Below, in pieces: positions 1,127 through 36,728 of a DNA stretch of 64,000 nucleotides (position 1 is its first letter; every line of letters starts with the position of its first letter). A program made the translations under genes and the position numbers. The notes beneath the pieces were generated by a model. It made no database searches. It saw nothing but the letters and a program-made list of their open reading frames with translations, and was not told the DNA's origin. Origin of the DNA: Candidatus Hydrogenedentota bacterium (lineage in GTDB: Bacteria > Hydrogenedentota > Hydrogenedentia > Hydrogenedentales > SLHB01); assembly GCA_045863295.1 (NCBI GenBank), contig BTWA01000021.1, positions 39,705 to 103,704 on the forward strand, written 5' to 3'.

Positions 1127-1495
1127 GTGTTTGTGAGGGATTTGTGGCATAAGCGTGCTTTTGTGCGCAGTCTGTGTGCTGCTTGTATGGCGCTTTTCGC
1201 GCTTGCGCAGGTGCATGGATTTTTGCACGTGCACGCCACCGAGTCGGCAATTTCGACGGAAGTCCATGGCGACTGCGGCAATCAGAATCCGGCGCCAAAT
1301 GAAAACCCGGTTGGTAAGAAGACCCATACGGAGTGTGGGCTTTGCGTCCTCGCATCAACGCCAGTATTGCCGTATTCCGGAGATTTACCTGCTGTTGCGC
1401 CGCCCGACACCCCAACCGAGGGTGCTTATAATCGAGTTACTTTTGGCCTTGACCTTTCTGGCGATCCTCAATCTCGCCGCGGCCCTCCAGCCTAA
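1127..1495 (+). CDS. DUF2946-like (CruR/CutF-type) leader protein with CxxC and C-terminal RGPP
   Basis: Hydrophobic N-terminal segment, HGFLHVH, CGLC, 44-aa spacer, RGPPA-stop; directly upstream of a DUF1559 gene. Exact start uncertain. Confidence 0.75.
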   Translation: MFVRDLWHKRAFVRSLCAACMALFALAQVHGFLHVHATESAISTEVHGDCGNQNPAPNENPVGKKTHTECGLCVLASTPVLPYSGDLPAVAPPDTPTEGAYNRVTFGLDLSGDPQSRRGPPA

Positions 1496-1600
1496 TCCAT
1501 ACTCCCGTAATTCCCGTCTGTGCAAAACAAGTGTTGCCCGCGGATTCAATTTCGCTGGGTACGTTTGGCGCTGCATGCGCCATTTTGGAGTTGGATAGTC

Positions 1601-2506
1601 ATGAATAAGCGTACTGGATTCACTTTGATTGAATTGTTGGTTGTCATCGCCATCATCGGAATTCTGGCGGCCATTTTGCTGCCTGCTTTGGCGCGTGCGC
1701 GCGAAGCCGCCCGGCGGGCCAGTTGCCAAAACAATCTGAAGCAAGTTGGCCTGGTGTTGAAGATGTACGCGAACGAAAGCCGCGGAGGCCTGTATCCGCA
1801 ACAGAAGACGGCAGACTGCAACGGCGATATTCAGCCATTCTGCACCATGTTTAATGGAACTGCCGTATACCCGGAATACCTTACCGACTGGAACGTGCTG
1901 GTATGCCCAAGCTCACCCAGCGGCAGTGACGCGCTGGAACTGTGGGATGCCGGCGATACACTGTCCAACAATTGGGAGTCCTCCCCGTTTTCGGATAACG
2001 GTGTTGTAGAGCCGTGCGAGATAGCGGAACACCCCTATGTGTACTTTGGTTGGGCTGTCAGCCCGACGATGATTCAGGCGGAATTTGCTGCCAGCGGCGA
2101 TTTGGAGGCATTCGAGGAATCGGTTGAGGCGCTGGCGGAATCCATTGAAATGGCCGGCTCGCTGGTCAATGCGGATGCTATAGCAGACCGTGACTGGACG
2201 CTGGCTTCGGCGGTAGGCGGTATCAGCAAGGTATCGCGCTTCAAAGAAGGCATCGAGCGGTTTATGATCACGAACATCAACGCCGCCGCCGCGGGCAACC
2301 AGGCCCAGTCCGAACTTCCCGCATTCTGGGACGAAATTGGCGACGAGGCCACCCACTTTAACCATGTACCGGGCGGCTGCAACGTGTTGTACATGGATGG
2401 ACATGTCTCTTTTATTCGTTACAACGGTCTGAATGGCAACCGCTATCCTGTCAATGAAGGCGGTTTAATCCTGCACGAATTCACGCACGGTCACAGCCAC
2501 CCGTAA
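1601..2506 (+). CDS. DUF1559-family prepilin-type N-terminal cleavage/methylation protein
   Basis: [49 protein letters not shown]-terminal H-X9-DG ([15 protein letters not shown]); His-rich tail [14 protein letters not shown] before ATG 1601. Confidence 0.92.
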
Positions 2507-2532
2507 TTGTGTGGTGAATCACGATTGAACTG

Positions 2533-2564
2533 GGCGGGACCCCACCCCGGGTCCCGCCTTTTTT
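2533..2564 (+). terminator. Rho-independent terminator
   Basis: GGCGGGACCC-CACCCC-GGGTCCCGCC followed by T6. Confidence 0.9.
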
Positions 2565-2658
2565 GCGTCAAACAAAAGTCTAACCGTACACAATCGCTTG
2601 CTTAACATCCTGTGGATAAACTACGCCTGTTGATTCGGGCTTCCGCGGAGACAAGCGA

Positions 2659-5145
2659 ATGAAAATCGACCTGCATTGCCACTCGAAGTTCTCCAAGAGG
2701 CCGACGCTCTGGATTATGCAAAAGTTGGGATGCCCGGAGAGTTTCACGGAACCGGTCGACTTGTACCGCTCATGTCTGACAAAAGGAATGAGCGCAGTCA
2801 CCATCACGGATCATAATGTAATCGACGGCGCGCTTGAGATTGCGCATTTGCCAAATACGATTACGGGTTGCGAATACACAACCTATTTTCCTGAAGACCG
2901 GTGTAAAGTGCACATCCTGGTATACGGCATGACCGAATCGCAGCACCGGGAACTGACGGAAGCTCGCGAAAATATATTTGATCTCGTGGCGTATGTGCAT
3001 GATCACAACCTTCCCCACATATGTGCCCATCCGCTGTTTTGGGTGAACGATCGTCTGACAGTGGCTCATGTCGAGAAACTGGTCCTGTTCTTTAAGAATT
3101 GGGAAATCAATGGCGACATGGAGCCGGCGATGAATTCGGCGGTTCAGTACCTGGTTCAAGGACTCACGCCAGAAATTATTGAGCGGCTAGTAAACAAGCA
3201 CGGCATTGTCCCCAAATTCGACGAACCGTGGAAAAAGAACTTGACCGCAGGTTCGGACGATCACAGTTCTCTGAATCTGACTAGTGCCTGGACAGAAGTA
3301 CCCAATGCAGGGACCTTTGAGGAGTTCTGGCGGGGGCTAAACGAAGGCCACGCACGAATCGGGTGTTTTCCATCGAGCCCCGAGAAATTCTCCCGCAACG
3401 TTTATGGCATCGCGTATCAGTTTTATAAGAGCAAGTTCAGCCTGGACCGTCATGTGCATAAAGATGTGTTTTTGCGCTATCTCGATCGTTCACTTCAATC
3501 GTTGCCGGAACCTCCGGAGCCCTGGTTTTCCCGTTTTCAACAGTTCATTGCGAGCCAGCGTCTGCGCAAAGGTGCGCAGAATCGGCAGTCGATTCTGAAT
3601 CTGGCGCGGCACGAGGCGGAAAAGCACATCAAGAATGATCCGCAACTGATGGACATCGTGCAGAAAGGAATCCGCCATGGAGGGCGACCTGATGAAACGT
3701 GGTACGAATTCGTCAATCAAGTCTCGAACAAAGTCCTGGTCCATTTCGGACGTCATGTCGTGGACCGGATCGTCCGCGCGCAGTTGTTCGACCTTTTTCA
3801 TTCCCTGGGTTCAGCCGGTGCGTTGTACATGCTGCTCGCGCCTTACTTCATCGGCTACTCGCTGTACCGCCGACAAAGGACCTGGAGCGAAGAAGTTCTG
3901 ACGCATTTTCGAGGCAAGCAAACAGGCGCCATGAATTCACAGCCCCGTGTGGCGCATTTTACAGATACCTACCACGAAGTAAACGGTGTGGCCCGCACTT
4001 TGAAGCAACAGAACGCCACGGCGCAACAGCTTGGATTGGACTACACGATTGTCTCCAGCTTTGCGGAGCGACGGCCTATTGAAAGGGGTGTTCACCCGTT
4101 CACCCCGATTGGCACTATCACAATCCCTGAGTACCCCGAGTTAAAGATGTTGATGCCGCCATTTCTGGAAATGCTCAAACATTGTTACGACGAGAATTTC
4201 ACCCATATCCATGTGGCCACGCCCGGACCGGTCGGTCTGGCCGCGCTCGGAATCGCCCGAATACTTCAACTTCCCATATCCGGAACCTATCATACGGCGT
4301 TTCCTCAATATGCCAAAGTGCTGACCGACGACGGCGTGGTCGAAGAGATGATGTGGAAGGCAATGATCTGGTTTTACGACCAGTTGGATGCGGTATACGT
4401 GCCCTCTATGGCGACCGGCAATGACTTGGTTGAGCGCGGACTCAATCCGGACAAGTTACGTGTCTATCCCCGGGGCGTGGATATCGAGCGATTTCACCCT
4501 CGCACGGGAAACGAATCCACGCGCGCGCGGTTCGGTATCCCTGTAGATGTTCCTGCCTTTATCTATGTTGGGCGTGTATCTCGCGAAAAGAATCTCCACA
4601 TTCTCGCCCATGCCTACAACTCGCTTCTGGAACGAGGGGTAGAGGCGACGCTCGTCATTGTCGGCGACGGTCCATTCCGGTTGGACATGCAGAAGATGCT
4701 GGAAGGCAGCCCTGCCGTGTTCACCGGATATCTGGAAGGGGATGACCTACCCGCGATCTACGCTGCGTGCGACACTCTGGTGTTTCCGAGCACAACCGAC
4801 ACCTTTGGTAATGTAGTGCTGGAAGCACAGGCTTGCGGTATTCCAGCCATTGTGACGGATCAAGGCGGCCCCCAGGAAAATGTGGTTCCGGATGAGACCG
4901 GTATCGTTGTACGGGGCACTGAACCGGCCGCACTCGTCGAGGCCATGGCATTACTGGCAAATGACCGGGCATTGCGACTCCGCATGGGCGCTGCTTCGCG
5001 GCGTTACATCGAGAACCGTGGTTTCGCAAGAGCCTTTGAGCAGCTCTATGCCATGTACGTTCAAGACTCGGCCCAAACCCATACCCTTCCCTTGGTATCG
5101 TTACAGAATTTGCCGTTTCCCACCTCCGAAGCCTTGGCCATATAG
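2659..5145 (+). CDS. PHP-domain / GT4 glycosyltransferase fusion
   Basis: N-terminal DLHCHS, ITDHN and GSDDH (PHP); C-terminal VGRVSREKN and FPSTTDTFGNVVLEAQACG (GT4). Confidence 0.9.
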   Translation: MKIDLHCHSKFSKRPTLWIMQKLGCPESFTEPVDLYRSCLTKGMSAVTITDHNVIDGALEIAHLPNTITGCEYTTYFPEDRCKVHILVYGMTESQHRELTEARENIFDLVAYVHDHNLPHICAHPLFWVNDRLTVAHVEKLVLFFKNWEINGDMEPAMNSAVQYLVQGLTPEIIERLVNKHGIVPKFDEPWKKNLTAGSDDHSSLNLTSAWTEVPNAGTFEEFWRGLNEGHARIGCFPSSPEKFSRNVYGIAYQFYKSKFSLDRHVHKDVFLRYLDRSLQSLPEPPEPWFSRFQQFIASQRLRKGAQNRQSILNLARHEAEKHIKNDPQLMDIVQKGIRHGGRPDETWYEFVNQVSNKVLVHFGRHVVDRIVRAQLFDLFHSLGSAGALYMLLAPYFIGYSLYRRQRTWSEEVLTHFRGKQTGAMNSQPRVAHFTDTYHEVNGVARTLKQQNATAQQLGLDYTIVSSFAERRPIERGVHPFTPIGTITIPEYPELKMLMPPFLEMLKHCYDENFTHIHVATPGPVGLAALGIARILQLPISGTYHTAFPQYAKVLTDDGVVEEMMWKAMIWFYDQLDAVYVPSMATGNDLVERGLNPDKLRVYPRGVDIERFHPRTGNESTRARFGIPVDVPAFIYVGRVSREKNLHILAHAYNSLLERGVEATLVIVGDGPFRLDMQKMLEGSPAVFTGYLEGDDLPAIYAACDTLVFPSTTDTFGNVVLEAQACGIPAIVTDQGGPQENVVPDETGIVVRGTEPAALVEAMALLANDRALRLRMGAASRRYIENRGFARAFEQLYAMYVQDSAQTHTLPLVSLQNLPFPTSEALAI

Positions 5146-5412
5146 CCGGTGTCTGCTGCCGGTTTCGAAAGAGCATGGGCGATCTGGCGCCGTTGCCGCT
5201 GCGAGGCGTTCTCACAAAGTATCGGCTGGACCTTCGGCACAACATCCATTTGGCTTTCCCATAGTCCGGGTGAATGTATGCTCTTGGTTTGGCCTGGATT
5301 CTCATTGGACGGGAATTTGGACATTATTTTGGGCTACCGGGGTAAGCCGAGTGCCCCTTCCGTGTCAGCTGCGCACCTTGTGTATTTCCGGGTTTCCGAA
5401 GCGACCCTATCC

Positions 5413-5441
5413 TTGTAACACCCCCATTTGTTGTCTATACT
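5413..5441 (+). promoter_or_regulatory. sigma70 promoter
   Basis: TTGTAA-17 bp-TATACT upstream of the CDS at 5571. Confidence 0.55.
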
Positions 5442-5570
5442 GAGGAATTCATGAATCCGGCTGTAACCGGGGGTTGATTTGCCCGGTCACTTGAAGCCGA
5501 TTCAGTTCATTCACTATGTCCCGGCGTGCCGGATTCCGGCGCCGGTTGGGGTTGCGAGGAGAGGCATCGG

Positions 5571-7403
5571 ATGCGCCATCAAGCCACGTTTATTCGTGAG
5601 CTGGAGGGTCTTAGCCGGCCCGCGTTCCGCATTGCACGTGAGTTGACACTGAACAGCCGATCCGGTTTAACAGTACGATTTCTGGCAAAGAAGCTGGAAG
5701 CGCCTGAGGAAGAGATCGAGTATCTGGTGGACGTGAACCACCGTCTCTTTTTTCACGATCTTACCAAGGTGAAGTTGGTTGCCGAAGGTTTTCCCGCCGT
5801 AAAGCGTATCACCGACGGACTCGAGAACCGCGGCGATGTTCCTTCCATGTTCAACCTTGCCAAGAGCATGGGTCCGCACGAATTTCGCCGTCTCGAGGAG
5901 CGCATTGGGATTGAGAAGCCCGGCGGCAAGAAGGCTGCCATCGAAGATCTTCTTTCCCGATATTATGCGACCACCGACGCCCTCGTTGAATATGTGGCCT
6001 CACGCGAGTTCACCCCCCATGCCCAGGAAGTCTTCGACATCATCTGGCAGTCCAAGAGCGGTATCATTCCCGTGGCCAAACTGCGCACTTTGCACAATCG
6101 TTCCGACTACGAAACGGAACAGGCTCTGAACGAATTGTTCGAAGGCTTTGCCGTATTCGAGATGTTCCGGTTCGATTCCGAAGAGCGCCTCGTGCGCGTT
6201 GCCGCTCTTTTGTCGGAGATTCGGCAATGGCGGGAGGACGAAAAAGCTCGCCGCAATGCGAAAGCGCAGCTAAAACCCGTTAAGGGAAAGCCCGACTGGG
6301 TGGAAACACGCGGGTTGGATTTTTCGGACAAGGTATGCCGGCTGGTCGCCGCCATTGCGGCCAAACCTGCACGGTTGCGCGGCGATGGCGAGTTGTTTCG
6401 TGAAGACCGGCGTCGCTTGAGTGAAATCGCGCCGGAAGAAGACGAGCCCTCGTTGCAGACGTTTTTGTGGATTGCGGAGGGCGTGGGTTGGATAGCCCGC
6501 GTGGACAACGAGTTGCGCACCGCGGATCTAGAAGAATTGCTCAACATGGATCGCATTGGCCGTCATCGAATCTTGGCGGAATGGCTGCTTGGCCGCGGCG
6601 GCGATCCAATGTCGCGCCGGGTCCTGGCAAAGGTGATCGATGAAATCAAGACAACATCCTGGTATTCCGTAATGGATTTCATTGAGTATGCCCGCCGCAT
6701 GGATACAGACACCGGCCAAGCGACATTGAGGAATGTCGGCGGCCACTGGCAGTATGCCGGCATTGGCACCGGGGGGGCAGGCAAGGCGCTTGCGCGGTCT
6801 CTTGAAGAAACGTTTCTGTGGCTTGGGATAGTCGATCGTGGAACAGAAGACGGGGAAAGCGTATTCAGGACTACCGAATTGGGCCGGTTTGTGCTCAGCG
6901 ACGGCAAGCTGGATGGATTGTCCAAGCATTTTCCGCCGGAGAAGGCAGAAATTGTGGTTCAACCGAATTTTGACATTATTGTTCCGACTCAAGACATGGA
7001 TCCGCTGCTTATCGTGCCGCTGGAACAGTTTTGTGTTCGAGGCAGCACGGGTTCGGCCACGGTTTACACGCTGACCAAGGATTCGTTTACGAAGGCAGTC
7101 CAAGAAGGACATGACAGCGATCGCTTTGTGCGGTTTCTGCTCACCCATAATCGCGGGGGGTCTTTACCCAACAACGTGATGACCACGCTGGATGATTGGC
7201 GAGGCGGAATGAAGCGCGTGAGATTGCGCACCATACACGTACTCGAAGCCGACGATCCTTTGGTCATGGCTGACATCCAGCATCGCCGACGGTTTGCCAA
7301 ACATTTCGAAAGCCTCGACCCTCGTAAGGCAGTCGCTGTCACCAAGATTTCCAAGTCTGAACTCGCCCGGGAGCTTGAAAAAGAAGGGTTTGTGGTCAGT
7401 TAG
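5571..7403 (+). CDS. Helicase-associated (XPB/Ssl2 N-terminal, Helicase_C_3-like) domain protein
   Basis: C-terminal VVQPNFDIIVP...YTLTKDSFTKAVQEG...LPNNVMTTLDDW; GAGGAG before ATG 5571; no Walker motifs. Confidence 0.75.
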   Translation: MRHQATFIRELEGLSRPAFRIARELTLNSRSGLTVRFLAKKLEAPEEEIEYLVDVNHRLFFHDLTKVKLVAEGFPAVKRITDGLENRGDVPSMFNLAKSMGPHEFRRLEERIGIEKPGGKKAAIEDLLSRYYATTDALVEYVASREFTPHAQEVFDIIWQSKSGIIPVAKLRTLHNRSDYETEQALNELFEGFAVFEMFRFDSEERLVRVAALLSEIRQWREDEKARRNAKAQLKPVKGKPDWVETRGLDFSDKVCRLVAAIAAKPARLRGDGELFREDRRRLSEIAPEEDEPSLQTFLWIAEGVGWIARVDNELRTADLEELLNMDRIGRHRILAEWLLGRGGDPMSRRVLAKVIDEIKTTSWYSVMDFIEYARRMDTDTGQATLRNVGGHWQYAGIGTGGAGKALARSLEETFLWLGIVDRGTEDGESVFRTTELGRFVLSDGKLDGLSKHFPPEKAEIVVQPNFDIIVPTQDMDPLLIVPLEQFCVRGSTGSATVYTLTKDSFTKAVQEGHDSDRFVRFLLTHNRGGSLPNNVMTTLDDWRGGMKRVRLRTIHVLEADDPLVMADIQHRRRFAKHFESLDPRKAVAVTKISKSELARELEKEGFVVS

Positions 7404-7432
7404 CCTGCATTTTTCACCACGCTTAAATCGTG

Positions 7433-7533
7433 CGTGGAAGACTGAAGTACAGTCTCCGTGGAAGACTGAAGTACAGTCTCCGTGGAAGACTGAAGTACAG
7501 TCTCCGTGGAAGACTGAAGTACAGTCTCCGTGG
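7433..7533. repeat. Perfect 24-bp tandem repeat x4 (+5 bp), palindromic unit
   Basis: CGTGGAAGACTGAAGTACAGTCTC at 7433, 7457, 7481 and 7505; each unit contains AGACTG-AAGTA-CAGTCT. Confidence 0.97.
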
Positions 7534-7765
7534 TGCAAAATGCTCACACAGAATTCCTTAATCTTGAAACGCTGAGGATATTTCACGTGCACACTGTAAG
7601 TGCACCAGTTTTGGTAACTGGCCGGTTGAATTGTTCTTGTACAGTTAATTGGACAAAGTCGTGAAATATCCGGATTAGTGCTCCCTTCCAACCCGTGATG
7701 CCAGACCTTGCCGGTTGTTTCTTTTCATGCGCCCTGTGGTATTCTCAGACTTTGGATACGTAGTG

Positions 7766-8866
7766 ATGGATTTTCTTTCCCAAATACAATTTCCGTTGCC
7801 GGCCAGAACCACGGTTTTGGGCGTTGCGGCTTGTTTTTTGCTGTTTTTGGTGGCTGCCGTTCTAATTGAGGCTATTCGGCGGCGGCGCATGATGCAAGGC
7901 ATTGTGGATGATGCGTGGAAAAGTGTCGACTCCATCATGGACGAGAAGGATTTCACGGAATCCGAAAAGGACATGCTCTCAAAGATACTGCGGCGCAGGG
8001 CGCCGCGCACACCGCATCAGGACATTACCGTGCGATACCGGTTCGAAGCGATCATCGACGAGGAGATGGCCGACCTTGAGGCTTCCGGGAATCGGGCGGA
8101 ATTTGAGCGCATGGGCAAATTGCTGAGAGATATCCGCGCCAAACTTGGCCTTGATTTCGTCGCACTGGGGCAGCGAATTCACTCTACACGAGAGCTTTAC
8201 CGCTCACAGGAAGTCTGGTTTTCGCCCGAGGGAACTCTGCCGGCACGCTGGCTGCGCGGCACGGTTACCGCTGTCGATGAAGCATTGGTCTCCGTTGCGC
8301 CCATTGCCGAGGAAGATACCACGGTGCCAGTAATACAGGCGGGAGAACGGGTAAAATTTCGTCTGTGGCGTGAGGAAGATGCGCGATACTTGTACGCCGT
8401 GAAGTTCAGCCATGCCGAGAAAGATCCGGTGCTCCTCTATTTTCATCACACTACGGATCTGCGTCGCGTTCAGAACCGGCAGTATTTCCGAATCGGATAC
8501 GATCAGCCTGCCGACGTGGGTGTTCTTGGAATTTATGCCGAGGAAAGCGATGCCGATGGCGGCGGTAAGCGCGTTGTGCAAAAGGTTCGCGGTCGGATTG
8601 TCAATATCAGTGCTGGCGGTTGCGCTATAATTTTTCCACAGGAGGTTTCGCTTCAGCACTATGTCCGCGTGCCGCTGGAGTTGGAGGGATCGCAACCGTT
8701 CACGGTTGATGGGCAGGTAATTTCTTGTGCCCCGTTAGCAGGAGGGCGCTTTCTGGTCCGCGTCACTTTTGCGCACATTGGCGAGGAGACGATCGACACG
8801 ATTGCCCAATTTGTGATTCGCCGGCAGCAGCGCGTGCTGGAGTCGGCAGAACACAGCGTGGTTTGA
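7766..8866 (+). CDS. Membrane-anchored PilZ/YcgR-like (flagellar brake-type) c-di-GMP receptor
   Basis: N-terminal TM helix; QNRQYFRI (RxxxR) and NISAGG (D/NxSxxG). Start may be 7715-7766. Confidence 0.82.
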   Translation: MDFLSQIQFPLPARTTVLGVAACFLLFLVAAVLIEAIRRRRMMQGIVDDAWKSVDSIMDEKDFTESEKDMLSKILRRRAPRTPHQDITVRYRFEAIIDEEMADLEASGNRAEFERMGKLLRDIRAKLGLDFVALGQRIHSTRELYRSQEVWFSPEGTLPARWLRGTVTAVDEALVSVAPIAEEDTTVPVIQAGERVKFRLWREEDARYLYAVKFSHAEKDPVLLYFHHTTDLRRVQNRQYFRIGYDQPADVGVLGIYAEESDADGGGKRVVQKVRGRIVNISAGGCAIIFPQEVSLQHYVRVPLELEGSQPFTVDGQVISCAPLAGGRFLVRVTFAHIGEETIDTIAQFVIRRQQRVLESAEHSVV

Positions 8867-8869
8867 GCC

Positions 8870-9616
8870 GTGAAACTAATCGGCGATGCTGTGAACGCGG
8901 TTCAGCGGAACCTGGGCGCGCTGGGTTTGTTTGTGGCCGCTTCCTTGGCGCTGAATACCCTTGTCTTTTTTGCCGATGGATTGTCCGGGATTGCCAGTGA
9001 TCCGGCCAACTTGACCCTGTTTGATTCCATGTACTTTCTGGCAAGGGGTTTAGTGATCGTTTCGATTTCATCCGCCGCCGCCACGGTGGCATTTGCCTGG
9101 ATGGGCCGCGAAATCGACCGTCCTCTGTGGAAGGTAGATGGAACCAAGGAAGCGCTCCGCAGGTTTTTTCCTGTCTGGTTTACGATTAATTTTATGGGCT
9201 GGGCGCCAACGTTCCTGGGGATGACGCTGGCGCAACGTACGTCGACTGCTCCCTTGGGTTATCTGCTGCTTCTGCTCAGCGTGATTTATGCGTTATTTAG
9301 CACTCCCATCGGCACTTGTATCATGTTCCACGGACGCTTCAGGTGGGATCAATTCGGTGAATCATTGTATCCATTAGTGAAACAGGCTCCCAAGACGGGA
9401 GTGGTATTATTAGTGACTATCACGCAGGTTGGTTTAATTCTCTATCTCGATCTTGTTGGCGGCGCGGGGCCGGCGGCATTCGACATTCGCGGACTGCTTA
9501 CCGACTATGCCACAAGTGTTGTAAACGTCTACATTGAATGTCTGGTGTTCGCGGCGGTGTGGATCATCTGCATCATCGATCGCGACACCTTTGAAGAGGT
9601 TGACCTTGACTTCTAA
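8870..9616 (+). CDS. Hypothetical multi-pass membrane protein
   Basis: About 6 hydrophobic segments; 3 bp after the upstream stop. Confidence 0.75.
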   Translation: MKLIGDAVNAVQRNLGALGLFVAASLALNTLVFFADGLSGIASDPANLTLFDSMYFLARGLVIVSISSAAATVAFAWMGREIDRPLWKVDGTKEALRRFFPVWFTINFMGWAPTFLGMTLAQRTSTAPLGYLLLLLSVIYALFSTPIGTCIMFHGRFRWDQFGESLYPLVKQAPKTGVVLLVTITQVGLILYLDLVGGAGPAAFDIRGLLTDYATSVVNVYIECLVFAAVWIICIIDRDTFEEVDLDF

Positions 9617-10184
9617 TCGTAATAGGCGCCCTGGCTGCCTTGTCGCAGGGTTTCTCGCTGTTTTTGTGTTTAGCCTCGCAGCATCGTATTACATCACCAT
9701 GCTCAGCATTCCCGACGGTTCACCGCTCCATGCGATGAGGGTTACGGAAGCCAATTTGACTTTGCTGGAGACGGCCATTGAGACATATAGACAGGCTCAC
9801 AATGCCTATCCCGATGCAGGAGAGCGGGGCTTGAATTCTGCTGTCGCAGAATTGTCTCGCGAAGCGGACTATCTACCTGGCGGCGCCCCGGCAGATGCAT
9901 GGGGCAGACCTTATGTATACGTGCCGTTTGAAGCCTACGGGGAGCCGGGCGCAGAGGCGATGAAGGATGAATCCGGAGCGTATGCCGCCCCCGGATCGTA
10001 TCAATTGTATTCCCGCGGTCTTGACGGAATTTCCAGCGCGTTGCCATCCGATGCAAATACGGACAATATCGTTTCCTGGGACAGGTCGAAGCCTTGGCAG
10101 GCTCGGTACCGCCACAAGCACAAGGAATTCGTGGCACGCTGGCGCAAGATGACGCCGGACGAGCGCATGAAGAAACCTCAGTGA
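9606..10184 (+). CDS. GspG-like (T2SS pseudopilin C-terminal domain) protein
   Basis: TM helix, then LETAIETYRQAHNAYP, DAWGRPYVY and YQLYSRGLDG...DNIVSW. No GFTLIE site. Start uncertain (ORF from 9534). Confidence 0.7.
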   Translation: MTSNRNRRPGCLVAGFLAVFVFSLAASYYITMLSIPDGSPLHAMRVTEANLTLLETAIETYRQAHNAYPDAGERGLNSAVAELSREADYLPGGAPADAWGRPYVYVPFEAYGEPGAEAMKDESGAYAAPGSYQLYSRGLDGISSALPSDANTDNIVSWDRSKPWQARYRHKHKEFVARWRKMTPDERMKKPQ

Positions 10185-20226: not shown

Positions 20227-20227
20227 G

Positions 20228-26596: not shown

Positions 26597-26607
26597 AGAG
26601 GAGTCGG

Positions 26608-27210: not shown

Positions 27211-27264
27211 GGCTCTCCTGTAAACCTCGAATCCAGTATTCCCGGAATAGCAAGGGTCCGCTGA

Positions 27265-27293
27265 AGTATATGCACCCAGTCCAACCCTGTCAA
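27265..27293 (-). promoter_or_regulatory. sigma70 promoter for HNH-priA
   Basis: TTGACA-17 bp-TATACT on the minus strand. Confidence 0.8.
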
Positions 27294-27601
27294 ACCGCGC
27301 ACAACGCTAAGAATCGGGAACCCTTTCCGCGTGCGGGCGTTGAGTGGCTCCCTTATAGTTCCTGATATGCGCACCCACCTTTGTGGTCAAGACGAGGGTA
27401 TCTGGCTGGAATCTGAAGGTTGAGTAATAGTCACGCGCGATATTGAAATCCCGAAAGACAGAACCGCTACGGGACGCGATTGAACTGGCGACTCAGTTTC
27501 TACGATTTGGCAGACAATGCCACGCAGGGTGGCGAGCTAGCTTTGCGTCTAATGACTGGAATCATCATCGACTTGGACAGGTAGTGGTACGCGACAAACC
27601 A

Positions 27602-28366: not shown

Positions 28367-28410
28367 TCACGCCTCCGTGCGCGTTGGACATCTCTGTCCA
28401 TTGCGCCTCC

Positions 28411-29748: not shown

Positions 29749-29876
29749 GGTGCATCTCCCACATTTCAATACGTCGTCCGCGCCGCACGTTGATGTGCGA
29801 ACGCTTCCTCTACCATACTGAATTGATATCCAAAAGTGTATCGCGCAATCATGAAATCAACCACGGAAGTGTCATC

Positions 29877-31070
29877 ATGCCGGTCATTCATACCCGTGTG
29901 GGCGTGCTGCTATGCTTCTTGGCGGCGGTCCCGCCACTCTCCGCCCAAGACGCGCCTGACCCGGGAATCCCTGGATTCACTCTCGCTTTCGAAGAAGCCC
30001 GGGCCAAACTGATTTCACGGGCGAAAGACGCGCTGACCCTCGGTCCGTTCAGTGTCGTGCACAAGAAAAGTACTCCTCCCAGCGGGGACAAGCACGATTT
30101 TTATTCCTTATCCCCTTACCATTGGCCCAATAGTGATAAGCCAGATGGAGTGCCCTATGTCTTTCGAGATGGCGAGGTGAATCCGGAGGCAGAGACCAAC
30201 GCGTATGACCGAGTTCGTTACTTTGCCCTTGTCGACGCGGTAAGTGTGTTGTCGCAGGCTTACTATTGGACCGGTGATCGGACCTACGCGGATCGGACTG
30301 CGCTGCTTCTACGCGCGTGGTTTGTCGATCCCTCCACACGTATGAATCCCAATTTGCAGTACGCTCAGCATGTCCCCGGCAACGACTCGGGGCCGCCTTG
30401 GGGGGTAATTCGCGGTGCAAAGCTCCTGGAAATAATCGACGGGGTGAAGCGCATCCATCCGTCCGGCGCATGGAGCCCGGACGACGATGCGGCATTTCGC
30501 ACATGGCTGGACCTGTATCTCCAATGGCTGCAAACGAGCGACAAAGGGAAGCGCGAAGCCATGGCATGGAACAATCACGGCACTTGGTACGACGCCCAGG
30601 CGGCAGGTATCGCCGCCTATCTTGGGAAGCGGGAAATCGTGATAACCATCCTCGAAAACACGCGCGACGCCCGCATCGGGCGCCAGTTCAAACCCGACGG
30701 GTCCCAGCCGCTCGAAACACGCCGCACAAAATCCTGGGACTACTGCATCATGAATCTCGAAGGCTGGTGTCGCCTCGCGGATCTCGGTGAGGAGATGGGC
30801 GTGGATCTGTGGAACTTCAGCACTGCTGAAGGATGTGGCATTATGCAGGCGCTCGCCTATTTGACTCCATTTGCCCTGGGCAACGCTCCATGGATACACG
30901 AAAATATCAAGGACTTCAGCCCTGAAACGATTGCCCCGCTGTTGATGCGAGCGGCGCGCGCATCCGGTGATCTTGAATTCCATATTTATGTATCGGAGAT
31001 TCCTGGCGCACTTCCAAAACTCACTGTGGACGCACTAGCGCGCCCTGAATACTATAAGCGCTCGTTCTGA
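29877..31070 (+). CDS. Alginate lyase family protein (secreted)
   Basis: PPSGDKHDFYS, RDGEVNPE, WFVDPSTRMNPNLQYAQ and NNHGTWYDAQ. Confidence 0.9.
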   Translation: MPVIHTRVGVLLCFLAAVPPLSAQDAPDPGIPGFTLAFEEARAKLISRAKDALTLGPFSVVHKKSTPPSGDKHDFYSLSPYHWPNSDKPDGVPYVFRDGEVNPEAETNAYDRVRYFALVDAVSVLSQAYYWTGDRTYADRTALLLRAWFVDPSTRMNPNLQYAQHVPGNDSGPPWGVIRGAKLLEIIDGVKRIHPSGAWSPDDDAAFRTWLDLYLQWLQTSDKGKREAMAWNNHGTWYDAQAAGIAAYLGKREIVITILENTRDARIGRQFKPDGSQPLETRRTKSWDYCIMNLEGWCRLADLGEEMGVDLWNFSTAEGCGIMQALAYLTPFALGNAPWIHENIKDFSPETIAPLLMRAARASGDLEFHIYVSEIPGALPKLTVDALARPEYYKRSF

Positions 31071-31080
31071 CAAACCACGC

Positions 31081-31152
31081 AAAAAGGCAGACGCCGGGAA
31101 CGCAGCTTACTCAAATGGTGGCAACCAGTAAGTCTGCGATGCGTTCCCGGCG
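31081..31152 (-). terminator. Long hairpin terminator between convergent genes
   Basis: CGCCGGGAACGCA...TGCGTTCCCGGCG with inner CTTACT/AGTAAG; T5 on the minus strand. Confidence 0.7.
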
Positions 31153-31176
31153 CCCTTGCCGAGCGGGAAAATGAAT

Positions 31177-32073
31177 CTAGAATCCGTCGAACGGCCGATC
31201 GTAACGTCCAAATGTCCTCGCGCTATCCGAAGTTACAGGAAACCTCGTCGCAGGGTATCGCGAGAACTGGACGTGTCCATCCAGATACAAAACGTTGCAG
31301 CCTCCTGGCACGTGGTTGAAATCCTCTGGCAAGGTGCTTATGTGGTCCCACATAACAGCGATCGAGCTTGATGCCCTGTTTGAGCCAGATGGGCTATTGA
31401 TGTTCGTTATCAGGAAGCGCTCAACACCTTCCTTCAAACGGAAAATCGTGTTTCCTCCACCCGCTTGCGTGCCTGCGTGTGCGGGGGAAACGGTAAAATC
31501 CTTGTCGCTTGCCACGCCAATCGACGTTGCATTGGCCTGAGCGAGTTCGCCCCAGGGCGTGCCCGCATACTGCGCTTCTTCGTAGCGCCCACCGGGTCCC
31601 GCGCCCTGAGTTCCCAACAGGGCGGTACCGAGAATGTTTAAGTCGCTTTCGATCAGAAATCCAGTGTAATTATAGGGCTCCTTTCTAATCTCACAGGGCT
31701 CTATGACACCGTTGTTGTTCCCGTGGACCCGATCATAGCGGTCCAGTGGCGATGGGTCTTTTCCCCAAGAAGGGCACCACACCACATTCGGATCTGCCAG
31801 ATACTCGGGCATTACCGAGACCCCATCAAAGATCATGGTCGAGCTAAGAGTCCCGTTGCAGTTGATACTCCTTCTTGGGGGCAATAGTCCGCGGCATTCA
31901 CCCGAGTACATGGCAAAGGCCAGACCCAATTGCTTTAAATTGTTTTGACACGATGCCCTTCGTGCTGCCTCCCGTGCGCGCGCCAGAGCCGGCAGCAGGA
32001 TGGTTGCAAGAATTCCTATGATCGCTATCACCACCAACAACTCAGTCAATGTAAAGCCACGATTCGGTTTCAT
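31177..32073 (-). CDS. DUF1559-family prepilin-type protein
   Basis: [49 protein letters not shown]. Confidence 0.92.
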
Positions 32074-32138
32074 GATGAACGTACTCCAAGTTTGGGCTTA
32101 CCCCCCTCCTGGTGGTCTGCCCTTGTTCCGTTCTTCAG

Positions 32139-32492
32139 TTAGGACTGTAATGTGATCATGAAGAACGGTGGAGCACGCCCCCATCGATTTCCAGACTCAA
32201 TACTTGGGTACGTAAGAACCGGAACCCAGCGCTGACTTTTCCAAACTGCCTGACTCGGTTGAAACAGTGCGGCGAAATGGGAAAATTCGATCGGGCAACT
32301 TAGGAAATCGCAAAACGGGCATGCATTGTCCTGCGCAAGACCACCCTCTTGAGGCGAATGCTCATGCGAATGGGTGCACAATCCGAGGTACTCGTGAGCA
32401 GAAGCCAGGCAAATGCCTCCAACAAGGAGCAACACCAAACCTGCGCCGATTCCTGCAGCGGCACGCGCTCTGGTAATTCCCAAGTTAGGCAC
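32139..32492 (-). CDS. DUF2946-like (CruR/CutF-type) leader protein with CxxC and RAPP
   Basis: Hydrophobic segment, HSHEH, CPFC, 44-aa spacer, RAPP. Confidence 0.75.
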   Translation of the reverse strand: MPNLGITRARAAAGIGAGLVLLLVGGICLASAHEYLGLCTHSHEHSPQEGGLAQDNACPFCDFLSCPIEFSHFAALFQPSQAVWKSQRWVPVLTYPSIESGNRWGRAPPFFMITLQS

Positions 32493-32524
32493 CTACTCAC
32501 CCCTGCAATGGTTCGAGGTTCGGA

Positions 32525-33562
32525 TCACTGAGCCGACTCCAAAGTGGTCGCCGCGTCTTCAACATCGGCTCCAGACGAATCTCCATCGATCAGTCGCTGC
32601 ACCGTGCGCTCCTGCACCCTTAACAAGTTGCGTTGCGAGTACCGGGTTGCGGTTTCGAATCCCTCACTTGCCGCAGCCACCCCTTCGTCGTAACGGCCGA
32701 GCACGGCGTAGGCTTTTGAAAGGTACAAGTACGACTCACCGAACACCTGATTTTGTGTGTCGTCAAACACTTCCCGGCGTTCAGCCATCTGGAGCCGATG
32801 CGCTTTGCCTAGTTCAACTGCCTTTGTAAGCAGATCGATCGCCAAGGCGTAGGCCTCTTCATCTGTCTTGATTGGCAGCACATCCCCTTCGTCGGCATGT
32901 ACCAAGCTGTCCAGCCGATCCGCGTATTCGAAGTACAGCCGTCCAAGGGCTCCATGAATCTCAAAGCTGGACGGATTTGCCTTTACGCCGGCTTCGAGCA
33001 TTTCCCGCGCTTCAGCCGGCTCGTTGGCAAAATCCGCTAGGTAAAACGCGCCCAGTGTGTACAACCTCTCCAATCCCGGATTCATCTTGACGGCAAGTTC
33101 GTACCACGGGATAAGCTCAACTGGATCGTCGTGTTTGTGGACGGTATCGTAGGGTTTTACACTGCGCTCAATCTCGCCGAACAGCCCCCTCCAGTCCCGT
33201 TCCTTATCGGTGACCATTTGCAGCCCTTCGGTGTGCGCTAAGCCTGTCGGAGCCGCTTCAGAGTCCTTGCGCATGTGGCCTCTTTGTTCTTCCGCCTGAG
33301 TGGGCATGCGTTGCACCATGCCCATATGGAGGTACTCCATACTCTTCAACCACATAATGTCGCCAATTGAAAGTTGAAGTTGCCCCATTAGCGACAGTGC
33401 GATCGACTCCTTGGCTGCGTCGATTTCTTCGGGCCGGTAGTCGGCTTTGGCTTCAACATGGGCGTGCGAGACATAGGCTACTACCGCCAGCGGCCCCATA
33501 AGGGCTACTAGAAATCCATAGAACATGTGTGCTGGCATGGTTTGTGAGATCCGTATGTTCAT
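32525..33562 (-). CDS. Membrane-anchored TPR-like protein
   Basis: Likely start ATG 33562 (TAATG overlap); TM segment, DIMWLK, then helical repeats (AVKMNP, GVKANP). Confidence 0.75.
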   Translation of the reverse strand: MNIRISQTMPAHMFYGFLVALMGPLAVVAYVSHAHVEAKADYRPEEIDAAKESIALSLMGQLQLSIGDIMWLKSMEYLHMGMVQRMPTQAEEQRGHMRKDSEAAPTGLAHTEGLQMVTDKERDWRGLFGEIERSVKPYDTVHKHDDPVELIPWYELAVKMNPGLERLYTLGAFYLADFANEPAEAREMLEAGVKANPSSFEIHGALGRLYFEYADRLDSLVHADEGDVLPIKTDEEAYALAIDLLTKAVELGKAHRLQMAERREVFDDTQNQVFGESYLYLSKAYAVLGRYDEGVAAASEGFETATRYSQRNLLRVQERTVQRLIDGDSSGADVEDAATTLESAQ

Positions 33563-34329
33563 TAGAGGTTCATCCGTTGAAAGCGGCGCATGCCTATGGC
33601 CATGAATATGAATGTGTACGTCAAGCCATATACGGTAAGCGCGGCCAATACCCAAAGTGGGGCGGGTGGCCACGCATGTACCTCTCGCTTGGTAATGTCG
33701 AATAACTCCAAATGGGGCACCGACCAATAGACGATATCGAAGACCCGCAACATGGTTCCCTCGAGTTCCGTCCTTACGGTCATCACAGTATTGGCAAACG
33801 TCTGCATGGCGAGCGCGGCCAAGAGGCTTATCGTGACGTTCGCACCGTGAGTCAAAAAAACCGAAAGCGTCAACGTCAGGCCTGCAATCATCCACATTGA
33901 GATCGTGCGCAAGTAGATGGCTTGAATAAACACACTCGACACGGGAATTCCGAGAATCCTAAACAGTACAAAAAGCTCCGCGAAAAACAGGAGCACAACG
34001 GCCGTCGACATAATGCCCACCCCGAGAAACTTACCCAGGAATACTTGAACACGCGATACCGGCTTTGCCAGTAACGGATAGAGCGTGCGATTCTGTATCT
34101 CCACGGGAAGCTGTCTCGCGGCCGTGACTACGCACACTAGAGTCGCCAAGAGGTAGGTGACGCTGAACCCAACGTCCTTTACGAACTTACCCAGCCCTTC
34201 TGTGCCAAAGCGGCTGAACAGGCCCGCCCCAAACACGACAAGGGCCGCCAGTATAAGTACCACATAGGGGTCCTTGCGTCGGAAGGATTCAATTATGGTT
34301 ACTTTCGCAATGCCGAATATTTTTTCCAC
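33562..34329 (-). CDS. ABC-2-type transporter permease
   Basis: EIQNRTLYPLLAKPVSRVQVFLGKFLG; about 6 TMs; GAGGAG before GTG 34329. Confidence 0.9.
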   Translation of the reverse strand: MEKIFGIAKVTIIESFRRKDPYVVLILAALVVFGAGLFSRFGTEGLGKFVKDVGFSVTYLLATLVCVVTAARQLPVEIQNRTLYPLLAKPVSRVQVFLGKFLGVGIMSTAVVLLFFAELFVLFRILGIPVSSVFIQAIYLRTISMWMIAGLTLTLSVFLTHGANVTISLLAALAMQTFANTVMTVRTELEGTMLRVFDIVYWSVPHLELFDITKREVHAWPPAPLWVLAALTVYGLTYTFIFMAIGMRRFQRMNL

Positions 34330-34340
34330 GGTATGACTCC

Positions 34341-35273
34341 TCAAGTGACTTTGTGTCCGATGCGCCGAACAAAGAAATCCTCCAGCGACCCTGCTTCTTC
34401 ATGTTCTCGGACTACGCGCGCATTCATTTCTTTGAGCAGGTGTTTTAGCCGTTCCTTCGATTCGGTATCGTCTGCCTGCAAGACGGATTTCCCATTATGT
34501 ACTGACTGTAGATAGGCTCCGTCTGGAAGTTCGACTGGCAATTTGAGATCCTCCACCACAAGCACATGCCGACGAAACTCTCTGAGCAAGTTCTCAAGGT
34601 TGTCCTCGTGTGTGACTTTTCCTTCGTCGATCAAGATCACGCGGTCGCAGAGCATCGTAACTTCCGATAGTTCGTGCGAAGAGAAGAACACGGTCTTTCC
34701 CTTTGCCTTGAAATCGAGGAGAATGCGTCGGACGTCGTATCGTGCGACCGGATCCAGACCGGACGTTACTTCGTCCAGAATCAAAAGGTCCGGTTCGCCC
34801 ATGATTGCCTGCGCGATACCAACACGTTGCAGCATACCTTTCGAGAATCCCCTAACTGGTTCTCGGTCGCGACCCGCCAGGCCGACTTTGTGTAAGAGGT
34901 CATCAATTGTCGCTTCGCGTTCCTTCTTTGGAATTTCGCGAAGTGTCGCGAACATGCGTAGCGTCTCGCGGGCAGTAAGGAAAGGGTAGTAAAGAGCCAC
35001 CTCGGGCAGAAACCCGATCCTCCGCCTCGCCTGGATGTCTCCCGGCTTGTACCCAAACAGGCTCACCTTGCCCGCGGTCGCCTTCCGAAATCCCATCAAG
35101 ACTTTGATCGTGGTGGACTTGCCGGCGCCATTGGGACCAATAAATCCCACGACTTCCCCTTGACGCACGCCCAAATTCAAGCCCTGAACGGCCTTGATTA
35201 ACTTACCTGAGTCCGTTTTGTATTCAACGGAAAGGTCAGTGATTTGCAGCACTGTTTCAGTTGTGTTTGCCAT
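34341..35273 (-). CDS. ABC transporter ATP-binding protein
   Basis: GPNGAGKST, FSKGMLQR, LILDEVTSGLDP and SSH. Confidence 0.96.
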   Translation of the reverse strand: MANTTETVLQITDLSVEYKTDSGKLIKAVQGLNLGVRQGEVVGFIGPNGAGKSTTIKVLMGFRKATAGKVSLFGYKPGDIQARRRIGFLPEVALYYPFLTARETLRMFATLREIPKKEREATIDDLLHKVGLAGRDREPVRGFSKGMLQRVGIAQAIMGEPDLLILDEVTSGLDPVARYDVRRILLDFKAKGKTVFFSSHELSEVTMLCDRVILIDEGKVTHEDNLENLLREFRRHVLVVEDLKLPVELPDGAYLQSVHNGKSVLQADDTESKERLKHLLKEMNARVVREHEEAGSLEDFFVRRIGHKVT

Positions 35274-35281
35274 GTTGAATA

Positions 35282-36028
35282 TTACTCCTGCGAAATCAGC
35301 CGTTGACGAAGTTCGTGCTTCGCCTTTTCCCTTTCAGGATCGGGGTGCGCAAGTTCTTCGAGTGTCTTCCGCCTGCCGGGAGCAGGCTTGCCCGCCGCTT
35401 CCAAGTCTTCGGTGTTGTCCGTTGCGGGAACTGGTTCGATCGAAGGGAGTGTCCGGTTCTTTTTATCCGGGGCGTCAGTTTCTTCGTGCACGTGGGCGTG
35501 ATCGCCGAGGGCATGCTTGTGGTTATCGTGATCGTGCATATGTTGGCTGTGGTCATGATCATCCAAGAAGTCGATCCCCAACGCCTTGTTGAAAATCCGG
35601 TTGGGTACATCCACATTCTGCTGTATAAAAGTGTCGAACGCGCGGATGTGGTGTTCCACTGCTCCACATCCGGCGCTATCCATCAACTTCCACTCGCCAT
35701 GTTCCCAGTTGTAGAAATACTCAATCCCCTCGAATGTCTTGAAGTCGGTATCGCCTTTTCGCTTGTAGTATGTGTGCACTACCCCGTACGAACGGCCGAA
35801 AAGGACAAACGCCTTGCCACTGTCCACGATGGCCAAATAGTCGAACTCGCTTTTGTCCCAGTCGCCGTTTGGACGGTCGAAATAGTCGTAGAGATGAAAC
35901 TCCGCTAGTTTGTCCAATTCCTTTTTCATGTTGTTCGTGTCATACAATGCCCATGCGCTAAATGAACTGAAACCCAGAATCAGAATTGCGCATACGTAGA
36001 TGTCCCGGCGTCTAACGATTATTTCCAT
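35282..36028 (-). CDS. Membrane-anchored/exported His-rich protein
   Basis: N-terminal TM; CGAVEHH; DDHDHSQHMHDHDNHKHALGDHAHVHE; GGGAGAGG before ATG 36028. Confidence 0.75.
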   Translation of the reverse strand: MEIIVRRRDIYVCAILILGFSSFSAWALYDTNNMKKELDKLAEFHLYDYFDRPNGDWDKSEFDYLAIVDSGKAFVLFGRSYGVVHTYYKRKGDTDFKTFEGIEYFYNWEHGEWKLMDSAGCGAVEHHIRAFDTFIQQNVDVPNRIFNKALGIDFLDDHDHSQHMHDHDNHKHALGDHAHVHEETDAPDKKNRTLPSIEPVPATDNTEDLEAAGKPAPGRRKTLEELAHPDPEREKAKHELRQRLISQE

Positions 36029-36308
36029 GGCTGCCTCTCCCTTTGCGTCGGCAATTTGTTTCTGCTTCTCAAGAGATCGCACACCTGTGGGCAACACGTC
36101 GCGGAAAAATTCCGCGTGTGCTTGTTCAGTAGGGTCTGTGCACGGCAGTCAGGCATTTGCAGACGAGGTGCCTAGTGAGACCTGTGACGCGCTGGACTAT
36201 GTTGCTCAGAGCGGCTATCGCGGATGCCAGGTACGAGTGGACAGCGGCCGACAACAAGTTCCAAGTACGCCCCAATTTGTGACGGTACCCATGAACTGGT
36301 GCGATGAT

Positions 36309-36728
36309 TCAGGCTGGGAGAGGAGGACCGCGGGATTTCCATTCTGAGGAAGGTTGAACACGATTTTGCAGACAATGACTGAAGACTCGTCCACACATCA
36401 CCGGTGGCAGGTCTGGCGTCACATTTCTTAGAACTGCCCGGCCTGACTCGGAGGCATAGGCCAAGCACAACCCACAGATACCTTGGTCAACTTCCATTCC
36501 GCCAGAACAGCGGATGGCACCCATTGGGTCAGCTTGACCAGGGGAATGAGCGGCGCACTCATGGGAATGATGCACTACCTGATGGACGACTCGCCCAATT
36601 GGGCTGCCCAGTACGATGGTGCCTACGAGCAAAAAAGTAGCAAGACTCGAGGTTGTGACTTTCTCCCATTCAAGGCGGCTACTGAATCGGCGGCGCCGAG
36701 AGAATTGTGTTGTGAGAATTTGCGCCAT
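36309..36728 (-). CDS. DUF2946-like (CruR/CutF-type) leader protein with CxxC and RGPP
   Basis: Hydrophobic segment, HQVVHHSHECAAH, CGLC, 44-aa spacer, RGPPLPA-stop. Confidence 0.75.
   Translation of the reverse strand: MAQILTTQFSRRRRFSSRLEWEKVTTSSLATFLLVGTIVLGSPIGRVVHQVVHHSHECAAHSPGQADPMGAIRCSGGMEVDQGICGLCLAYASESGRAVLRNVTPDLPPVMCGRVFSHCLQNRVQPSSEWKSRGPPLPA

Follow-up and report, generated by a model that had tools for sequence, protein, structure and literature searches.

CruR (Bp2923) of Bordetella pertussis is the prototype of the DUF2946 proteins (Roy et al. 2022, PMC9426467). According to the available text of that study, these proteins carry export signals in more than 95% of cases and are encoded by the first gene of copper-related operons; in CruR the CXXC and RAPP motifs lie 45 residues apart, and this distance is held within 1-2 residues in more than 2000 members of the family. 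Arrest of CruR has been observed in vitro, with a toeprint that puts the Pro-Pro codon pair into the ribosomal P and A sites, and arrest at RAPP and RGPP is robust and gains no relief from EF-P, as stated in the accessible text of Fujiwara et al. 2025 (PMC12992588). Three small open reading frames of this layout, designated leaders A, B and C, are found in a 64,000-nucleotide stretch of DNA from a Candidatus Hydrogenedentota bacterium (assembly GCA_045863295.1, contig BTWA01000021.1, positions 39,705 to 103,704), referred to below as the window. Two of them stand upstream of genes for pilin-like DUF1559 proteins, and the third heads an operon for a His-rich protein, an ATP-binding cassette (ABC) transporter of the ABC-2 type and a TPR protein.

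The window leaders share with CruR a small first gene, a putative export signal, CxxC followed after about 45 residues by a RAPP-type motif near the stop codon, and a long intergenic region. The cargo, that is the gene or genes placed under the leader, differs, being a TonB-dependent copper transporter with PepSY_TM in the case of CruR and either a DUF1559 protein or the His-rich protein with the ABC-2 transporter here. CruR is from Proteobacteria, whereas the window leaders are from Hydrogenedentota, where RGPP, RDPP and RSPP variants are common. Furthermore, CruR has been shown to act via Rho, whereas RNA folding at the present loci points to masking of the Shine-Dalgarno (SD) sequence of the next gene, and, unlike for CruR, two leaders are present in one operon. 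The usual cargo of DUF2946 leaders (TonB receptor, PepSY_TM, PCuAC, YcnI, CopC, Cus/OEP or multicopper oxidase), which is typical of the family but does not define it, is not the cargo here.

A second DUF2946-like prototype is CutF, from the cutFOG operon of Rhodobacter capsulatus (Ozturk et al. 2023, PMC9973294; bioRxiv 10.1101/2025.02.05.636593). As described in the available text of these sources, CutF is, like the window leaders, an exported leader with a Cys motif, and its stalling is proposed to melt a stem-loop over the ribosome-binding site of the next gene. CutF has CxxxC and an EF-P-dependent PPP, whereas the window leaders have CxxC and R[AG]PP, which places them outside the CutF type, and the CutF cargo, a multicopper oxidase, is induced by an excess of copper, whereas the window cargo includes no recognised cuproenzyme. 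ApdA, ApdP and their relatives (Sakiyama 2021, Morici 2024, Fujiwara 2024) likewise carry RAPP or RGPP at the C-terminus of a small exported or membrane product of an upstream open reading frame (uORF) that controls the next gene. In the accessible accounts, leaders of this type monitor the export machinery from a position upstream of sec or yidC, and no CxxC/His cluster at a fixed distance is described for them; the genes downstream of the window leaders, in contrast, are neither Sec nor YidC genes.

Leader reading frames and their family

Leader A (1127..1495, plus strand) encodes 122 residues, with CGLC at residue 70, RGPP at residue 118 and a single Ala between the motif and the stop codon. 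In leader B (32139..32492, minus strand; 117 residues) CPFC is at residue 58 and RAPP at residue 106, followed by 8 residues, and in leader C (36309..36728, minus strand; 139 residues) CGLC is at residue 85 and RGPP at residue 133, followed by Leu-Pro-Ala and the stop. The distance from CxxC to R[AG]PP is exactly 44 residues in all three translations. Each leader begins with an Arg/Lys-rich segment followed by a 17-residue hydrophobic window with a Kyte-Doolittle mean of 1.9-2.4, as judged by hydropathy only, and four to five His residues (A 5, B 4, C 5) lie between the hydrophobic segment and CxxC. Pairwise identity among the three is 24-32%. The first-pass annotation of the window had described a layout shared in spite of low similarity, and the translations bear this out.

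The whole genome (6.34 Mb) was searched in six frames with a regular expression consisting of CxxC, 38-52 residues, R[AG]PP, 0-15 residues and a stop. Of the 13 rows returned, eight cross a stop codon and are artefacts of the pattern, four are leaders and one is an Arg-rich frame of 56 codons, which was rejected as a leader as its spacing is 39 and it has no hydrophobic segment. The four genuine leaders, all with a spacing of 44, are leaders A, B and C of the window and a copy on contig 35 (C35:62185-62655 from the start codon; the stop-to-stop frame begins at 62173). The latter precedes, by ~200 nt, a DUF1559 gene for a protein with the C-terminus MGMGGHH. Given that three of the four leaders in the genome abut a DUF1559 gene, and that the genome has only about 21-24 such genes, the arrangement is far beyond chance. 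A chance or spurious origin of the leader frames is ruled out by their conservation in relatives, described below.

In a Pfam search, leader A matched DUF2946 at 24.8 bits, above the gathering score of 23.7, over model positions 7-117 of 117. Leader B matched the same family at 20.2 bits (E 0.0011), under that cut-off, over model positions 31-117, and in both leaders the end of the model falls on the last Pro of R[AG]PP. The membership in DUF2946 that the first-pass annotation had put forward, together with this search as a check, is hence upheld by the model for leader A and narrowly falls short of the cut-off for leader B; it was not recovered in this way for leader C. Comparison of leader C with a profile of 35 leaders from relatives gave an hhalign match (74%, E 2.8e-5) over residues 46-96, from the His cluster to CxxC, and leader C would be placed in the family by its layout together with this weak match. 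Among the leaders of relatives, DUF2946 was the sole recurrent Pfam family (7 of 10 leaders at E<=1, 20 of 35 at E<=0.01). As the CxxC-44-RAPP layout is the published signature of DUF2946, leaders A, B and C appear to be divergent members of that family, and the assignment of these three and of the contig 35 copy as new, divergent members of the CruR/CutF class is supported at the level of sequence.

Linkage to DUF1559 genes and to a composite operon

Leader A is separated by 105 nt from the gene for DUF1559 protein A (301 residues; 1601..2506, plus strand), and leader B by 65 nt from the gene for DUF1559 protein B (298 residues; 31177..32073, minus strand), so that two of the leaders lie directly upstream of DUF1559 prepilin genes, as had been reported from the first inspection of the window. 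Both proteins match N_methyl (36 bits), SBP_bac_10 (46-51 bits, profile positions 2-34 only) and the H-X9-DG domain TIGR04294 (25-28 bits, cut-off 19). In the H-X9-DG motif, His255 and His268 are invariant. Protein A has a C-terminal tail of the His/Met type.

The linkage was followed in a sample of 135 Hydrogenedentota genomes from 66 genera. On the DUF1559 side, the best homologue of protein A was taken in each of 29 other genomes (57-69% identity), a choice that does not select for leaders. Two of these loci are cut by contig ends, and in all 27 evaluable loci a CxxC-(42-47)-R[AGS]PP reading frame was found 100-230 nt upstream of the homologue. Conservation of the linkage in relatives, which had been set as a check in the first-pass annotation, is thereby established. 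On the leader side, a profile built from 10 sequences matched 43 of the 135 genomes and 22 of the 66 genera. A first profile of 4 sequences had matched only 3 of 60 relatives; evidently, small profiles fail because the leader peptides diverge too fast. Many genomes of the DUF1559-side set were missed by the leader profile, and the true prevalence is therefore above 43/135.

From the leader side, 29 loci were examined, and 28 of these contain a total of 35 motif-bearing leader frames, including four that were also profile-building sequences. A prepilin N-terminus follows 32 of the 35 leaders, at a distance of 41-270 nt or, where a second leader stands in tandem, after that leader. In the three exceptions the leader is followed by a contig end, by a His/Glu-rich surface protein and by a protein with two CxxCH motifs, respectively. 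The His/Glu-rich protein (locus L027, G115:C114) has 424 residues and a C-terminal membrane anchor, and the other cargo (locus L036, G112:C641) is a protein of ~455 residues in which the two CxxCH motifs are of the haem-binding type and which shows a weak match to Cytochrome_CBB3.

In 76 unique Hydrogenedentota leaders, the spacing ranges from 42 to 47 residues, though the regular expression permitted 38-52, and is 44 in 42 of them. The arrest motif is RGPP in 41 leaders, RAPP in 22, RDPP in 11 and RSPP in 2, and the tail between motif and stop has 1-9 residues in every one of the 76. An alignment of 35 leaders from relatives left CxxC and R-x-PP as the only invariant positions. Many short leaders of 90-100 residues (loci L148, L149, L154, L156, L157, L159-L162, L165 and L166) have a second long hydrophobic stretch directly after CxxC; as judged from this order of segments, the metal motif would sit at the membrane interface in such leaders and not in a soluble loop.

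A FastTree phylogeny of 96 DUF1559 proteins gathered 26 leader-linked proteins in a single clade free of unlinked members (SH-like support 96), a result that is biased when taken alone, as most of the linked rows were found through their leaders, and from which the DUF1559-side test removes the bias. Protein A and the contig 35 protein fall inside this all-leader-linked clade. At least four His plus Met residues are present among the last 20 residues in 42 of 52 leader-linked proteins versus 3 of 67 unlinked proteins, and HExxH is present in the last 25 residues in 30 of 52 versus 1 of 67. Typical endings of the leader-linked proteins are LHELSHGHSHP, FHRSNHMLNGTAMMHM and GTMGMMGGGMGHP. The confinement of His/Met tails largely to these proteins lends indirect support to the metal role proposed for them below.

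In the window, the two-gene unit A is preceded by a sigma-70-like promoter candidate (1056..1084, plus strand), TTGACA-17-CATACT, with 10 of 12 matches to the consensus, a consensus match only, and is closed by an intrinsic-terminator-like hairpin (2532..2559, plus strand) with an 11-bp stem, 9 GC pairs and a T run. On the minus strand, leader C heads a longer run of genes in which neighbouring reading frames overlap or almost touch. After a gap of 280 nt it is followed by the gene for a His-rich membrane-anchored protein of 248 residues (35282..36028, minus strand) that ends in the tail DHDHSQHMHDHDNHKHALGDHAHVHEE; the start was taken as the ATG at 36028 because the proteins of relatives begin at the same MEIIVRR-type residues. 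Searches of Pfam and NCBIfam found no family for this protein, and the ESM Atlas gave no usable hit. Next come an ABC transporter ATPase (34341..35273, minus strand; ABC_tran 101 bits), for which the best NCBIfam matches are of the drrA and GldA types and are all under their cut-offs, and an ABC-2 type permease (33562..34344, minus strand; ABC2_membrane_4 35.6 bits) that overlaps the ATPase stop by 4 nt. A membrane-anchored TPR protein follows (32525..33562, minus strand; TPR_14), and inspection of the frame put its start at MNIRISQ, with a 1-nt overlap onto the permease stop. Leader B begins 32 nt after the TPR gene and precedes the gene for protein B. The third leader thus heads the His-rich/ABC/TPR operon as originally claimed.

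Homologues of the His-rich protein were found in 35 of the 135 phylum genomes. Among 29 loci retrieved from relatives, 10 have the His-rich protein between an upstream leader and a downstream ABC ATPase, an eleventh (L181) has the leader and a downstream sequence too short to show the ATPase, and the other 18 are mostly weak, partial matches. All four larger regions fetched (G057, G110, G107 and G122) have the same seven-gene order of leader, His-rich protein, ABC ATPase, ABC-2 permease, TPR-like protein, second R[AG]PP leader and DUF1559 gene. In three of the four, the second leader is without CxxC, in place of which a His motif, HWHG...PHE[YH]G, is present, and R[AG]PP near the C-terminus is kept (L197:4899-5615, L198:5056-5502(-) and L199:4987-5487(-), in strand-oriented coordinates). 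These His-only second leaders resemble the CutF-like His-only clusters that, in the available text of Ozturk et al., are linked to Ni/Co genes, and they may be a variant that possibly senses a different metal.

The other genes of the window are unrelated to the leader units. A gene for a GspG-like pseudopilin (T2SSG) of the type II secretion system lies at 9534-10181, 7 kb from unit A, and adjoins the gene for a PilZ-domain protein (7715-8863). A short tandem repeat at 7430-7560, read as four copies of KTEVQSPW on one strand and as four of HGDCTSVF on the opposite strand (reading frames 7294-7575 and 7164-7691), sits between a helicase-C-domain gene and the PilZ-domain gene.

Outside Hydrogenedentota, a leader was found at 2 of 77 DUF1559 loci among the matches listed from all phyla, one in an unclassified metagenome-assembled genome (L044) and one in a Planctomycetaceae genome (L088); the 77 are mostly unrelated paralogues that match at the N-terminus only, and they give no gauge of pairing frequency. 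In a sample of 301 Planctomycetota genomes, DUF2946 was matched at E<=0.001 in 15, and a motif-bearing leader was present at 12 of those loci. The next gene encodes a pilin-like protein in four cases and a secreted protein in seven, and one case is unclear. The secreted cargo (L122, L124, L127, L128, L132, L135 and L136) has 407-464 residues in five complete copies, a coiled-coil-like N-terminus and a conserved DPYF motif; no Pfam family was found in the five copies scanned, and it may represent an unnamed outer-membrane or periplasmic class of cargo for copper-type leaders. The occurrence of 'a few' DUF2946 members in Planctomycetes is mentioned in the accessible text of Roy et al. 2022 (PMC9426467), and Table S1 of that study has two Planctomycetes proteins, with no neighbour families given.

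The pairing of such leaders with DUF1559 genes was held to be undescribed when it was first noticed here. This is correct for discussion in the main text of Fujiwara et al. 2025 (PMC12992588), where neither 'pilin' nor DUF1559 occurs, but not for the source data of Fig 4B of the same paper, in which 'DUF1559 domain-containing protein' is recorded after 112 RAPP vs 68 AAPP uORFs (6.5-fold enrichment, adjusted p 1e-31). That paper lists the pairing only; neither the leader family and its spacing nor the DUF1559 clade, the His/Met tails, the composite operon or RNA structure is analysed there. The term DUF1559 is absent from the available supplement text of Ozturk et al. 2023 (PMC9973294), whose neighbour table, File S1, is probably not part of that text and might list the pairing. 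A full-text literature search returned seven distinct papers that name DUF1559 and, within the portions of them that it exposes, none linking the family to metals, to leaders or to a function.

Proposed control of the genes downstream

In the reading preferred here, to which a probability of roughly 0.6 is assigned, the leaders are exported, metal-binding arrest peptides of the DUF2946 class, arrest of which would unmask the SD sequence of the cargo gene, with metal tuning the arrest. By analogy with CruR, the hydrophobic N-terminal segment of the leader would engage the membrane during translation, and the ribosome would arrest at R[AG]PP, its P and A sites occupied by the two Pro codons. A ribosome stalled at this point would cover C/U-rich sequence, made up of the Pro codons, the short tail and the bases just past the stop, which would otherwise pair with the cargo SD; with the SD-pairing sequence covered, the ribosome-binding site would therefore open and the cargo would be switched on. 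The His cluster and CxxC would bind metal at a distance of 44 residues from the arrest point, and the bound metal would alter the duration of arrest. Under CruR-like logic, arrest would be the default state, the cargo would be made at metal scarcity, and bound metal would release the arrest. This direction is modestly favoured over the opposite one, because arrest at RAPP/RGPP is intrinsically strong and unrelieved by EF-P. Copper is the likeliest metal, and Zn or Ni are possible. Two kinds of cargo would be served, namely the pilin-like DUF1559 envelope clade with flexible, His/Met-rich C-terminal tails and the His-rich membrane protein with the ABC-2 transporter and TPR protein, and both would belong to an envelope module for metal capture or handling.

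The predicted pairing was assessed by RNA folding of 26 leader-pilin pairs, each taken from the motif's Arg codon up to a point 20 nt beyond the cargo start. The stall-proximal region was defined as the motif codons to 20 nt after the stop, and mononucleotide shuffles of that region served as the null. The mean probability of pairing between the cargo SD and the stall-proximal region was 0.76 vs 0.45 +/- 0.06 in shuffled sequences and was reached by none of 60 shuffle sets, although the loci are related, and the pooled statistic overstates their independence, which tells against the reading. When the first 22 nt were blocked, in imitation of a ribosome arrested with the Pro-Pro codons in its P and A sites, the mean unpaired-SD probability rose from 0.13 to 0.42. 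At locus B, GCUCCA, which corresponds to the Ala-Pro codons of RAPP (32169..32174, minus strand), is predicted to pair with the SD UGGAGU (32083-32088) with a probability of 1.0; the shuffle mean is 0.2, and none of 60 shuffles reached the observed value. In the Pro-Leu-Pro codons of leader C, CCUCUCCC (36316..36323, minus strand) is complementary to the SD region GGGAGAGG of the His-rich protein gene (36035..36042, minus strand), and the two are predicted to pair across 280 nt with a probability of 0.9999, a value reached in none of 100 shuffles, although 0.9 was reached by 28 of the 100 and much of the signal is a matter of composition. At locus A, a predicted anti-SD element, AUCCAUACUCC, directly follows the leader stop (1495..1505, plus strand) and pairs in the minimum free energy fold with GGAGUUGGAU (1587..1596, plus strand), the SD region of DUF1559 gene A, whose GGAG precedes the ATG at 1601 by 11-14 nt; the pairing probability of 0.52 is below the shuffle mean of 0.67. 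As modelled, the SD-masking signal is real in aggregate, is partly compositional and does not settle the matter at every single locus. That a designed anti-SD consists of the Pro codons alone was considered and dropped, the first Pro codon being CCU in 6 of 28 cases with no clear CCU-CCN bias, and an Rfam scan of window positions 1-40000 at gathering thresholds gave no match.

Besides the compositional signal at locus C and the pairing at locus A, several observations weigh against the reading of metal-tuned SD unmasking. Folding z-scores of whole regions are unremarkable (-2.0 to +1.0). For leader C, no Pfam family was matched, DUF2946 included, and its match to the leader profile is modest. 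CruR and CutF answer copper in opposite directions, and homology leaves the direction of the response unfixed. Pfam and NCBIfam scans recognised no TonB receptor, PCuAC, CopC or multicopper oxidase in the leader operons. Protein B has no His/Met tail and falls in a sister clade with two leader-less paralogues from the same genome, and the leader-linked DUF1559 proteins seen in Planctomycetota are likewise without such tails. Finally, among the sequencing runs listed as containing the locus there is no RNA run, only DNA runs labelled as bioreactor or sludge metagenomes.

Leaders of the same family could act mainly through Rho-dependent termination in the intergenic region, a stalled ribosome hiding the Rho loading site, and this is rather unlikely as the principal mode. 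It is the mode used, according to the available text of Roy et al. (PMC9426467), by CruR, the closest characterised homologue by motif (CxxC, RAPP, 45-residue spacing). Rho is encoded in the genome (690 bits, above the cut-off), the intergenic regions are long (41-319 nt), and in the 60 nt that follow leader A, C is plentiful and G scarce (19 C, 11 G). However, the signature of a Rho site is weak across the set, as only 18 of 28 intergenic regions have more C than G in their first 60 nt; at locus B the same interval has 13 C and 21 G, with only 65 nt between the genes, and a pure Rho model does not predict pairing of the SD with the stall site above that of shuffles. Rho termination and SD unmasking could act together, and a CruR-style Rho component is neither excluded nor favoured by the data.

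Two further explanations assign a different role to the same features. CxxC is also a classic redox motif, and the leaders might sense the thiol-disulfide state of the envelope, the pull of a CxxC disulfide releasing arrest and so tuning synthesis of the Cys-containing pilin-like proteins. The His cluster beside CxxC in all window leaders speaks against this, as do the three second leaders of relatives that have lost CxxC and keep the His motif and R[AG]PP. Cysteines are indeed conserved in the leader-linked DUF1559 proteins (C42, C73 and C139 without exception and C102 to at least 90% in alignment A4), and RAPP/RGPP uORFs are enriched upstream of DsbA and thioredoxin-domain genes in the accessible text of PMC12992588; the cargo tails, however, are rich in His/Met and not in Cys, and the Pfam match is to the copper-linked DUF2946. 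A redox sensor is accordingly regarded as improbable. Still less credible, and by some way the least probable of the explanations considered, is that the small reading frames encode stable, exported metallochaperone-like proteins that act post-translationally, R[AG]PP being incidental and regulation in cis absent. Their export signals and Cys/His ligands do resemble those of small periplasmic metal-binding proteins, but the invariant positions are only CxxC and R-x-PP, the rest having 15-39% identity, which is more in keeping with a nascent-chain device than with a folded protein. The distance from CxxC to R.PP is held at 42-47 residues, with the motif always 1-9 residues from the stop, whereas RAPP-like motifs are otherwise avoided in bacterial proteomes (available text of PMC12992588). 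The CutF and CruR proteins, moreover, are reported as undetectable in vivo in the accessible text of PMC9426467 and bioRxiv 10.1101/2025.02.05.636593.

DUF1559 proteins and a possible role in envelope metal handling

An AlphaFold2 model of protein A has an overall predicted local distance difference test score of 85.5, with the tail of low confidence. A Foldseek search of the DUF1559 model against the PDB returned nothing at E<=0.001, and the only similarities from a wide VIA-align search, to type IV pilins and pseudopilins, were weak (Z 4.5-3.3). The genome encodes a prepilin peptidase. Elsewhere in the genome, three near-identical DUF1559 paralogues without a leader, two of them in tandem, are located at C4:30616-32900 and C2:215142, and their branch lengths of 0.005-0.1 suggest recent duplication within the genome. 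In the accessible text of PMC8567305, DUF1559 is among the most expanded families of Planctomycetota, with at least 41 genes per genome in Planctomycetales, and 91 proteins of Tuwongella immobilis have both N_methyl and SBP_bac_10 domains.

What is new in the present work are the three leaders in a 36-kb stretch with a fourth in the same genome, the conserved composite operon with two leaders, tails of the His/Met/HExxH type that are specific to the clade, the test of linkage that starts from the DUF1559 genes and the statistics of SD masking. The cargo range of CruR/CutF-type arrest leaders is widened past the classic copper genes, and the natural R[AGDS]PP variants, together with the His-only leaders, form a set for the study of ligand control of arrest from outside the ribosome. 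A regulatory leader combined with clade-specific tails makes the function of pilin-like DUF1559 proteins a testable hypothesis of metal handling. On a tentative extension of this hypothesis, against which the odds still lie, DUF1559 proteins of Hydrogenedentota and some Planctomycetota may be envelope metal-capture devices, whose HExxH/His/Met tails would bind copper (or Zn/Ni) and which would be made at scarcity together with the His-rich protein and the ABC-2 transporter. If true, this would be the first function assigned to the very large DUF1559 family, and would constitute a new, pilus-machinery-dependent form of metal acquisition in bacteria without the TonB receptors that are usual under CruR-type leaders.

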